NCBI GenBank assembly: GCA_039809345.1
Contig: JBDHUW010000005.1
Span: 45,105-109,104 of the forward strand
Direction: 5' to 3'
Origin: Candidatus Absconditabacterales bacterium
GTDB lineage: Bacteria; Patescibacteriota; Gracilibacteria; Absconditabacterales; Absconditicoccaceae
DNA length: 64,000 bases
Of the stretch, positions 23,724-24,824 are shown one piece after another. The notes beneath the pieces are model-generated. The model ran no database searches. It worked only from the letters and a program-made list of their open reading frames with translations, and was not told where the DNA came from. Made by a program: the position numbers and the translations under genes. The stretch's first letter is position 1, and each line of letters starts with the position of its first letter.

Positions 23724-23749
23724 AAAAAACCAGGCGGAAGATGCCGCCT
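23724..23749 (-). terminator. rho-independent terminator of the lipoprotein ORF
   Basis: Hairpin AGGCGG-N6-CCGCCT (23732-23749). Read on the minus strand it is followed by GG-TTTTTT. Confidence 0.5.
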
Positions 23750-23765
23750 AGTCTCTATTTTGTTG

Positions 23766-24770
23766 CTATCTTTGCCAGCTCCACGTAGCTGGCAGGTTGA
23801 ATACCAATCCACTTGCAACGCTGGGCACCTCAGTTCGGTTTTCAAGTATCTGAGTGTATTCTATTTTTTCGATCTTGAATTCCCATGTGGCAGTGGGAGT
23901 TGGGTAGTAGGCAGGGGTTTCAAGGCTGGTTAGAATGTTAATGGGAGAGTCGTTGCTGAAGTATTTAACTCCCACGTCAATAACTCCAGTTGTGGCTACG
24001 GTGATTTCGTAAGGGTGTCCATTGAGATACAAAGTAGCTTTTTTGCCCACTATTCCAACTCCCATATCCTTTGCAGAATAGTGGATTTTATTGATATACC
24101 CCTTGTGGGTATCCCATCCTTGCCAGCCATAGGTATTTATGGTCATGTGGGCCAGTGTTGAAGGTCCTCCCTGTTCAGAGTTCCAGTATAAGGCAGTACC
24201 TACCACCTGGAGTACATCCGTTACGGATTTTTTGGACGGGACATAGATATTGTCTATTCCCTTTCGCATATTTTTGTCTTCGTATGCTCTAACCCCATTA
24301 CGATATCCTTCGAGGTTATAATCTGACAGAGATATACTAAATCTCCCGATTTCTTCCTTTTTTTGGGGTGTGCGAGTTTGCACATGCACATATAATTTAT
24401 TTGTTACATCCTCTTTTAGGAAGGAAGTATCCCTAAAAAAGTTTAGAAACAATTTGTCCCCTCGCATGGTTCCTGATCCAACCGCTTGTCCTGTATTCAC
24501 CTCTACGGTGATTGAGGTTACTAGAGGATTTATTTTGTATCCATTTTCACCTTTCACATCGTAGGCTAGGCCACTCAGGTAGCGACCGTCTTCATCACCC
24601 ACAATTTCAATGGGAAAGATGAACCCATTTACTACCTGCCCTCCATAGGGGAATTCATTTTCCAGTATCTTCAGAGATGACTGGGGTTCGATCGTCTCTA
24701 ATTCTTTTTGACAACCTATCAGGCTGCTAACGGCGAGAATTAGTATCGCCAGATTTAATAATTTTTTCAT
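23766..24770 (-). CDS. lipoprotein of unknown function; apparent standard-code import
   Basis: 334 aa, intact in the standard code. Lipobox signal MKKLLNLAILILAVSSLIGC. About 30 Gly, all GGN, with no TGA. Visibly higher GC than its neighbours. Has its own promoter and terminator. TAG stop. Confidence 0.75.
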   Translation of the reverse strand: MKKLLNLAILILAVSSLIGCQKELETIEPQSSLKILENEFPYGGQVVNGFIFPIEIVGDEDGRYLSGLAYDVKGENGYKINPLVTSITVEVNTGQAVGSGTMRGDKLFLNFFRDTSFLKEDVTNKLYVHVQTRTPQKKEEIGRFSISLSDYNLEGYRNGVRAYEDKNMRKGIDNIYVPSKKSVTDVLQVVGTALYWNSEQGGPSTLAHMTINTYGWQGWDTHKGYINKIHYSAKDMGVGIVGKKATLYLNGHPYEITVATTGVIDVGVKYFSNDSPINILTSLETPAYYPTPTATWEFKIEKIEYTQILENRTEVPSVASGLVFNLPATWSWQR

Positions 24771-24796
24771 AAAAATTTTATTTGTTTTATGGGAGT

Positions 24797-24824
24797 ATTA
24801 TAAACTATATTTTATTAATGTCAA
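24797..24824 (-). promoter_or_regulatory. consensus sigma-70 type promoter for the lipoprotein ORF
   Basis: Minus strand reads TTGACA (24824-24819), a 16-nt spacer, then TATAAT (24802-24797). It sits about 27 nt upstream of the ATG at 24770. Confidence 0.5.

Follow-up and report, generated by a model that had tools for sequence, protein, structure and literature searches.

The stretch of DNA analysed here, which we call the window, comprises 64,000 nucleotides of a Candidatus Absconditabacterales contig (JBDHUW010000005.1). It contains a gene for a 334-residue lipoprotein with 30 glycine codons and no in-frame TGA, in DNA where TGA is read as glycine. The only relative of this gene that we could find lies at the same position in an independent metagenome assembly, and it too is free of TGA. 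We give a probability of roughly 0.45 to the reading that the gene, an accessory one restricted to its lineage, is resident in an Absconditabacteria (SR1)-type genome and that selection keeps TGA out of it, probably in connection with high expression.

The genetic code of the window was established first from the neighbouring genes. These fragment when translated with table 11, and reading TGA as a sense codon produces long open reading frames (ORFs) with 20–55 in-frame TGAs across the window. To assign an amino acid, the TGA positions of endonuclease IV (Nfo) were masked and the protein was aligned to solved endonuclease IV structures. Of the masked positions that were conserved and could be aligned, 9/9 fell on glycine (IGAH, AGGL, NLG, AAG etc.). 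The window therefore uses code 25 rather than code 4, with TGA encoding glycine and not tryptophan. Outside the lipoprotein gene, 653 of the 1342 glycine codons (49%) are TGA and 689 are GGN; a curated set of 41 genes gives 623 TGA against 639 GGN. The stop codons used in the window are TAA (28 genes) and TAG (13 genes).

The 30 glycine codons of the lipoprotein gene are divided between GGA (16), GGG (6), GGT (5) and GGC (3). By a simple binomial, the probability of 0/30 TGA is 2e-9. The TGA fraction of individual genes in the window spans 0.07–0.76, and a beta-binomial fitted to this gene-to-gene spread gives probabilities of 4e-5 for the window gene and 8e-5 for its orthologue. Among 97 ORFs with at least 10 glycine codons, drawn from ∼150 kb of this clade, the two lipoprotein orthologues are the only ones free of TGA. 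Both end in TAG, and with no in-frame TGA they are read identically in codes 11 and 25. Out-of-frame TGA is common (7 and 10 occurrences in the other two frames, somewhat below the background density), so that the avoidance is specific to the reading frame and a general depletion of the trinucleotide was rejected as its cause. A strand effect was rejected because the minus-strand genes have slightly more TGA than the rest (fraction 0.52), and GC content because the next most GC-rich gene (46754–47803, GC 0.425) has 17 TGA among its 34 glycine codons.

The orthologue (P0002) is encoded on an independent JGI metagenome contig, L001. As in the window, the gene is convergent with ruvC, and the endonuclease IV gene precedes ruvC. 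Upstream of the lipoprotein promoter in L001 are tRNA-Arg(gcg) and then a CBS-domain gene; in the window, this tRNA and the CBS gene are found 5 kb farther away. There are no phage genes beside the cassette in L001. The L001 gene has 0 TGA among 27 glycine codons, and its neighbours have 4/11, 15/30 and 4/12. The cassette's leader and terminator are kept, its promoter is again a 12/12 match though the spacer has diverged, and the tRNA-proximal block is intact in both genomes. The pattern is thus one of conserved ends, promoter and terminator around a variable interior. The left junction, TAA-TAT-ACAAAAAACC...GCGGAAGATGCCGCC after ruvC, is common to the window and L001 only; in every other filled site that we compared, a different sequence directly follows ruvC. 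Since the two genomes share a junction found in no other filled site, the simplest reading, and a likely one, is that the cassette entered once and was inherited by both lineages.

The two lineages have been separated for long enough to be informative about codon choice. Between the window and L001 the lipoprotein has 62% amino acid identity, with a proportion of synonymous differences (pS) of 0.77 and a non-synonymous divergence (dN) of 0.288. The corresponding values are 90%, 0.63 and 0.074 for RuvC; 81–82%, 0.81 and 0.141 for Nfo; and 92–93%, 0.52 and 0.046 for the CBS protein. Four-fold sites differ at 0.68 for the lipoprotein and at 0.46–0.77 for every pair of these genomes; synonymous sites are therefore saturated. 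The same-codon fraction in the lipoprotein gene is 0.48, compared with a saturation baseline of ∼0.5. With a pN/pS of ∼0.3, it is a genuine gene under purifying selection, evolving 2–6 times faster than its flanks.

At the conserved glycine positions of the lipoprotein, the codon has changed at 16 of 22, always among GGA, GGG, GGT and GGC, and the same-codon identity at these 22 positions is 27%, against 24% expected at full saturation. Of the conserved glycine sites of the flanks (n = 49), TGA occurs at 31, and at 18 the codon has switched from one to the other of TGA and GGN. A two-state model fitted to the flanks, which assumes a gene without TGA when the lineages split, predicts ∼12 TGA among the 57 lipoprotein glycine codons, and the probability of finding none is 1.3e-6. 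For the 22 conserved glycine sites alone, the conditional probability is 2e-4.

Because the glycine codons have been fully reshuffled among GGN without ever becoming TGA, and given the turnover rates in the flanks, the lack of TGA is probably maintained by selection against UGA-Gly and is not a relic of import. Two options are left: selection against TGA in this gene, or divergence of the alleles somewhere that TGA does not encode glycine, followed by separate import. Separate import would have placed both copies on the same nucleotide without scars, from a source present in no database.

The course of events would then be as follows. The cassette would have inserted once between the ruvC stop and the promoter of tRNA-Arg(gcg), and the two copies would have diverged under purifying selection to their present identity and to synonymous saturation. 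Selection would have kept in-frame UGA-Gly out while the GGN codons were reshuffled. The product would be a major surface lipoprotein made at very high expression, for which decoding of UGA by tRNA-Gly(UCA) would be slower or more error-prone than that of GGN, at a cost that scales with expression.

That the selection arises from very high expression as a major surface lipoprotein is a tentative part of this proposal; it would fit the conserved perfect promoter, the strong terminator and the enrichment of C-ending codons. In proteomic data from a code-25 bacterium, UGA was matched by 40 peptides with glycine and by single peptides each with tryptophan, alanine, aspartate and lysine (PMC4032931). 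Given such imperfect fidelity, the use of UGA could cost accuracy, and the more so the more abundant the protein.

The perfect 12/12 promoter is the only one in the 64 kb of the window, where 0.14 would be expected by chance; two others occur in ∼130 kb of related loci. Promoter strength is judged here from consensus matches. The C-ending share of two-fold codons is 0.48 in the window gene and 0.41 in L001, compared with 0.30–0.40 in genes of the same strand; the bias is partly a strand effect, as the minus-strand genes are all richer in C-ending codons. Only 1 of 42 genes in the window has a Shine-Dalgarno-like motif upstream, and the leaders are A/U-rich. The lipoprotein gene lacks the motif like the other 41 genes of 42, so its translation signals are native in style. 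Its GC content is 0.429 compared with 0.362 for the window, its GC content at third codon positions (GC3) is 0.428 compared with 0.32–0.33, and of the 42 genes it deviates most in synonymous usage, even when glycine is excluded.

An earlier note on this DNA, made from the sequence alone (the preliminary description), had reported a lipoprotein ORF of 334 residues between ruvC and a restriction enzyme gene, with about 30 glycines and no TGA, neighbours using TGA for roughly half of their glycine, a raised GC content with more G/C-ending codons, a TTGACA-N16-TATAAT promoter and a terminator of a hairpin plus T6. All of this agrees with our results, the neighbouring genes encoding RuvC and a Type IIG enzyme. 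Its naive estimate of 0.5^30 for the absence of TGA compares with the binomial and beta-binomial values given above. The comparison with the flanks that it proposed bears out the deviant codon usage; the tetranucleotide deviation is modest, at a z of only 1.95.

Several points weigh against maintained exclusion through high expression. There are only two orthologues, so that 'maintained' rests on one pairwise comparison. Housekeeping genes with lower TGA use never reach zero (S1, 0.26; DEAD-box helicase, 0.27; PheS, 0.14; adenylate kinase, 0.07), and genes for ribosomal proteins or EF-Tu, which could serve as calibration, are missing from the window. TGA is the commonest glycine codon genome-wide, so its tRNA is presumably abundant. 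The protein evolves fast (dN 0.29), which is common in surface antigens but not usual where expression is high. C-ending preference served as a proxy for the expression axis across the window genes, and the TGA fraction was uncorrelated with it (rho 0.11 overall, −0.09 on the plus strand). The flanks are mosaic, so that the recombination history is complex, and the lipoprotein gene is more diverged at synonymous sites than the CBS gene (P = 0.02). Gain and loss of the cassette in relatives are formally indistinguishable.

In the searchable literature we found no description, for code-25 bacteria, of a single gene that has excluded a reassigned codon throughout synonymous saturation. After a change of code, a stop codon that has been reassigned is usually regarded as just another synonymous codon. 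Exclusion through synonymous randomisation would imply a gene-specific cost or a regulatory meaning of UGA-Gly in code-25 bacteria. It would also mean that TGA-free genes in code-25 bins, which an automated screen would take for contamination or horizontal transfer, can be long-term residents.

To place the cassette in context, related loci from Absconditabacteria/SR1-type genomes were gathered via RuvC and ten loci were compared. The slot between ruvC and tRNA-Arg(gcg) is empty in four, holds other cargo in four and holds this cassette in two; a check of presence and absence in relatives had been proposed in the preliminary description. The filled slots contain five different cargos, inserted between the ruvC stop and the tRNA promoter block, and the core genes on either side, which use code 25, keep their synteny in nine relatives. 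We consider it very likely that the ∼1.2-kb cassette sits in a recombination hot spot at which species carry nothing or unrelated cargo. The slot is also a handy marker locus for accessory-gene turnover in these uncultured episymbionts. One further contig, L003, had no synteny with the locus, and a metagenome scan that took the CBS gene as its anchor gave a single contig, which at 1.5 kb was uninformative.

The other cargo in the slot comes from the ordinary code-25 gene pool: it contains TGA and is AT-rich. An origin of the lipoprotein cassette outside that pool is plausible, because it is TGA-free and GC-richer, unlike all the other cargo. The window also carries a restriction–modification (RM), MazF and Bro-N island in the same slot (24950–29785, ∼4.8 kb), with a GC content of 0.20–0.33 and tetranucleotide z values of up to 6.3, the most deviant in the window. 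The island is missing from L001 and from all eight other related loci, which makes it the most recent insertion in the slot, and its high TGA content points to the code-25 gene pool. It is clearly a foreign block, which arrived later and separately. No obvious antitoxin was called beside its MazF/PemK toxin.

Around both the RM island and the cassette, searches for att sites, direct repeats and target-site duplications gave only chance-level repeats, and no recombinase or integrase was found among the slot genes. The CBS gene of the window shares 93% identity with that of L001 and only 73–76% with those of other relatives, whereas nfo is about equidistant from all relatives (81–86%). These mosaic identities suggest homologous recombination around the slot, and the turnover of its contents probably takes place by recombination in the flanks. 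The terminator hairpin of the cassette (23732–23749) adjoins the ruvC stop and scores as a terminator on the plus strand too. It is kept in L001 and missing from the empty sites; it may act in both directions, and ruvC may owe to the cassette a terminator that it does not have at the empty sites. At the same position and in the same orientation in L017 there is a second, different lipoprotein (10836–11318, minus strand), with the lipobox LTSC and a C-terminal HNYGLAVDID that is reminiscent of M15/VanY-type peptidases.

The coordinates of the features described here are collected in Table 1.

Table 1. Features of the lipoprotein locus in the window, and of the slot between ruvC and tRNA-Arg(gcg) in related loci. 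TGA counts are given per total glycine codons.
Feature	Position	Strand	Remarks
Whole lipoprotein cassette	23722..24950	-	From junction alignments of empty and filled sites; starts directly after ruvC stop + TAT, ends where homology with L001 is lost, just before the restriction-enzyme gene
Intrinsic terminator	23725..23756	-	GC-rich hairpin + T6; dG -19.2 kcal/mol, z=-4.2
Lipoprotein CDS, 334 aa	23766..24770	-	ATG start, TAG stop
Short A/U-rich leader	24771..24796	-	No Shine-Dalgarno motif; nearly identical in L001
Sigma-70 consensus promoter	24797..24824	-	TTGACA-N16-TATAAT, 12/12 match
Lipoprotein promoter in L001	976-1003		12/12 match
nfo (endonuclease IV gene)	22293-23225		
ruvC	23248..23718	+	Left core flank of hot spot, convergent with lipoprotein gene; 6/11 TGA
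RM/MazF/Bro-N insertion	24960..29771	+	Same slot; low GC, TGA-rich, deviant tetranucleotides
Type IIG Eco57I/MmeI-like RM enzyme	24960-27938	+	23/55 TGA
MazF/PemK toxin	28062-28604	+	6/8 TGA
Bro-N protein	28917-29771	+	
Right core flank	29785..29934	+	Conserved tRNA promoter block (CCTTGATTTTC...) + tRNA-Arg(gcg)
tRNA-Arg(gcg)	29860-29934	+	
CBS-domain gene	29962-30726		
Slot, window	23719-29859		This lipoprotein, 0/30 TGA
Slot, L001			This lipoprotein, 0/27 TGA
Slot, L002	7560-7637		Empty; in the four empty loci the ruvC stop is 3-14 nt from the tRNA promoter block
Slot, L013	10472-10550		Empty
Slot, L014			Empty
Slot, L016			Empty
Slot, L015	1325-1809		119-aa ORF, 6/10 TGA
Slot, L017	10472-11439		Unrelated 160-aa lipoprotein, M15-peptidase-like end, 2/8 TGA
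Slot, L018	10472-12274		535-aa kinase-like gene, GC 0.26, 22/36 TGA
Slot, L019	10472-11486		271-aa gene, 12/14 TGA

If the lack of TGA were not due to selection within the chromosome, the alleles could have diverged in an external, TGA-free (code-11-compatible) pool of phages or mobile elements of Absconditabacteria and Gracilibacteria, and re-seeded chromosomes before TGA accumulated. Among the phages predicted for Gracilibacteria, most show no clear alternative coding, and the examined phages of this kind from Gracilibacteria and Absconditabacteria have no in-frame TGA (PMC10746230, Liu et al. 2023). The cassette resembles them in its lack of in-frame TGA, its non-TGA stop, which is the same in both codes, and its host clade. 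Its mildly atypical composition, the hot-spot site beside a tRNA gene, the adjoining Bro-N and defence genes in the window, a synonymous divergence above that of the adjacent CBS gene, and conserved ends around a variable interior could all be expected of such a source. However, it differs from them in being a single chromosomal gene at a conserved locus, with long inheritance and with no phage homologue or structural genes. No homologue was found in IMG/VR, INPHARED, PHROGs or 5.8 billion proteins, and neither an integrase nor att or direct repeats were present. The left junction is identical in the two genomes and different in all other filled sites. Integrated prophages of these phyla are reported to be TGA-dense (PMC10746230), and the residence of each copy would have to be shorter than ∼19% of the time for which the lineages have been separate. 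We regard such a reservoir as unlikely.

Another possibility is that the protein is needed when UGA decoding is compromised, for example as a surface exclusion or defence lipoprotein, so that its translation must be independent of the code. The triggers could be RF2-like termination by a phage, toxins or stress that cleave or deplete tRNA-Gly(UCA), or transfer across a code boundary. A gene lacking in-frame TGA would go on being translated while synthesis of the other proteins stalled. The avoidance of TGA is strictly in-frame and complete in both species, the expression signals are universal ones (a sigma-70 consensus promoter, an intrinsic terminator and a Sec/lipobox signal), and defence-type cargo occurs in the slot (RM and MazF in the window, a kinase-like gene in L018). 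For this clade, phages and hosts with conflicting genetic codes are on record, but the same study reports no phage RF2 or attack on tRNA-Gly(UCA) in this lineage (PMC10746230). Moreover, the defence genes of the same slot are themselves TGA-rich, no known defence family was matched with PADLOC, and the bias towards C-ending codons would be left unexplained. We find this explanation improbable.

A more general form of the same idea would be that a surface-lipoprotein gene is kept 'code-proof', the reassigned codon acting as a gene-by-gene translatability switch in a cellular genome. This would mirror the proposal made for recoded phages, in which, as cited in PMC10746230, early genes are free of the recoded codon and late genes are rich in it. 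In both cases a reassigned stop within a gene would decide which translational state permits its synthesis. The phage case is a timing system, whereas here there is one host gene in a recoded bacterium and the switch is putative. We consider it rather doubtful.

The preliminary description had favoured a recent import across a genetic-code boundary, possibly from the bacterial host of an episymbiont. A gene taken from such a standard-code bacterium would not yet have adapted to code 25. In the light of L001, this would have to have happened independently in both lineages. The absence of TGA, the higher GC and GC3, the codon usage, the presence and absence among relatives, and the TGA-containing, AT-rich nature of the other slot cargo are all what such an import would produce. 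The view of a self-contained accessory cassette, present in some relatives and absent from others, stands. Recency does not, as the orthologue lies at an identical left junction, with saturated synonymous sites; a residency of at most 19% of the lineage time would be needed twice. Nor is there a standard-code donor to be found, with no homologue in 5.8 billion proteins, 1.84 billion representatives, IMG/VR, INPHARED, PHROGs or PDB. The initiation region without a Shine-Dalgarno motif is native-like, and the tetranucleotide z of the cassette compares with 6.3 for the foreign RM block. A same-position orthologue containing TGA-Gly had been named in advance as the observation that would speak against the import; the orthologue exists but is TGA-free. 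The anomaly therefore stands, and the orthologue argues that it is a maintained state rather than an import relic. Recent import is largely refuted by L001 and seems highly improbable.

Chance or neutral drift, with TGA simply not yet having arisen in the gene, might draw on the wide spread of TGA fractions among genes, but is very hard to reconcile with the beta-binomial, turnover-model and conserved-site probabilities given above. Finally, an assembly chimera or contamination, in which a standard-code fragment was misjoined into a code-25 contig, would account for the abrupt change in codon properties over ∼1 kb, but the preliminary description's concern about an assembly or insertion artefact is all but ruled out by the recurrence of the same ruvC–terminator–CDS–promoter order, with the same ruvC-side junction, in the independent L001 assembly, where it runs directly into tRNA-Arg and the CBS gene, and by the code-25 core genes on both flanks.

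Maintained exclusion from a resident gene can be compared with translational selection. In highly expressed bacterial genes slow or error-prone codons are avoided, and NNC codons are preferred in two-fold pyrimidine-ending boxes. The lipoprotein gene is similar in its gene- and frame-specific avoidance through saturation, its C-ending preference and its maximal-consensus promoter. It is dissimilar in that the avoided codon is the commonest synonymous codon as well as a reassigned stop, and in that the avoidance is absolute instead of graded. The locus itself can be compared with tRNA-adjacent hot spots and genomic islands, with which it shares a precise slot holding nothing or unrelated cargo, including RM, MazF and Bro-N in the window. 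In contrast to these, insertion takes place upstream (5′) of the tRNA promoter instead of at the 3′ end of the tRNA, and the searches revealed neither an integrase nor att repeats or a target-site duplication.

The N-terminus of the protein, MKKLLNLAILILAVSSLIG|C, combines a basic n-region with a hydrophobic core and the lipobox L-I-G-C, whose cysteine is at position 20 (Cys20). The signal peptide (MKKLLNLAILILAVSS...), with its positively charged n-region and hydrophobic h-region, is kept in both orthologues. The lipobox, as taken straight from the sequence, is L-I-G-C in the window and M-I-G-C in L001, and the cysteine is invariant. Lipoproteins combine such a signal peptide with a lipobox of the form [LVI][ASTVI][GAS]C and an invariant cysteine at +1, which the window protein matches. 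All that can be said is that this appears to be a Sec/signal peptidase II-type lipoprotein with a mature part predicted to be mostly β-strand. With its N-terminal MKK, hydrophobic core, L-I-G-C and predicted β-rich mature part it is like the bacterial lipoproteins processed by Lgt and signal peptidase II; unlike them, its mature domain matches no known family, and its own family has two members in 5.8 billion proteins.

The absence of a recognisable family, already suspected in the preliminary description, was confirmed in Pfam, NCBIfam, PHROGs and PDB (sequence profile), and PADLOC gave no defence family at E ≤ 0.1. A single-sequence search of 5.8 billion proteins identified P0002 as the sole relative, a profile search of the same set found nothing beyond it, and an exhaustive phmmer search of 1.84 billion representatives gave no further homologue. 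One extra phmmer match, P0003, was dismissed as a translated tandem repeat. The phage collections were likewise empty (IMG/VR scan, INPHARED tblastn and PHROGs). AlphaFold2 models from the two-sequence alignment had a predicted local distance difference test (pLDDT) score of 45 and 53 in two runs (full-length and mature part). Foldseek searches of PDB with these gave no credible match, with full-length template modelling (TM) scores of at most 0.24 and root-mean-square deviations above 19 Å. One short match of 92 columns, with a query-normalised TM score of 0.19, was not meaningful, and generic matches to two-β-sandwich adhesins were discounted as evidence. Sequence and structure searches, of the kind that the preliminary description had proposed, yielded one orthologue only.

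The fast rate of evolution is as expected for an exposed surface protein. Cultivated Absconditabacteria are reported to have an episymbiotic or predatory lifestyle (PMC11452946). Together with the accessory distribution of the gene, this makes a cell-surface role in contact with hosts or phages plausible, though conjectural.

Other genes of the window also differ in their use of TGA. In pheS (30738–31763), 4/28 glycine codons are TGA, compared with 12–15 of 25–29 in the orthologues of five relatives (Fisher P = 6e-4), and the adenylate kinase gene (47897–48541) has 1/15. As these counts show, the use of TGA in ordinary genes can move strongly within a single lineage. A putative gene, a 159-residue hydrophobic ORF of low GC at 46035–46514 (GC 0.32), has 0 TGA among 6 glycine codons (P ∼0.02), too few for significance. 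Three consecutive giant ORFs at 48632–58684 (1170, 1012 and 1157 residues) are rich in charged and coiled-coil-like sequence, with normal TGA fractions of 0.44–0.63; the first two belong to no obvious family by eye. The 659-residue cysteine-rich protein encoded at 31848–33827 has an N-terminal hydrophobic segment and about seven repeats of the form C-x-(T/L)-P-(W/R)-G-x(5,6)-(H/N)-(G/N)-x(4,5)-A-(Y/F), and is probably a secreted or surface repeat protein.

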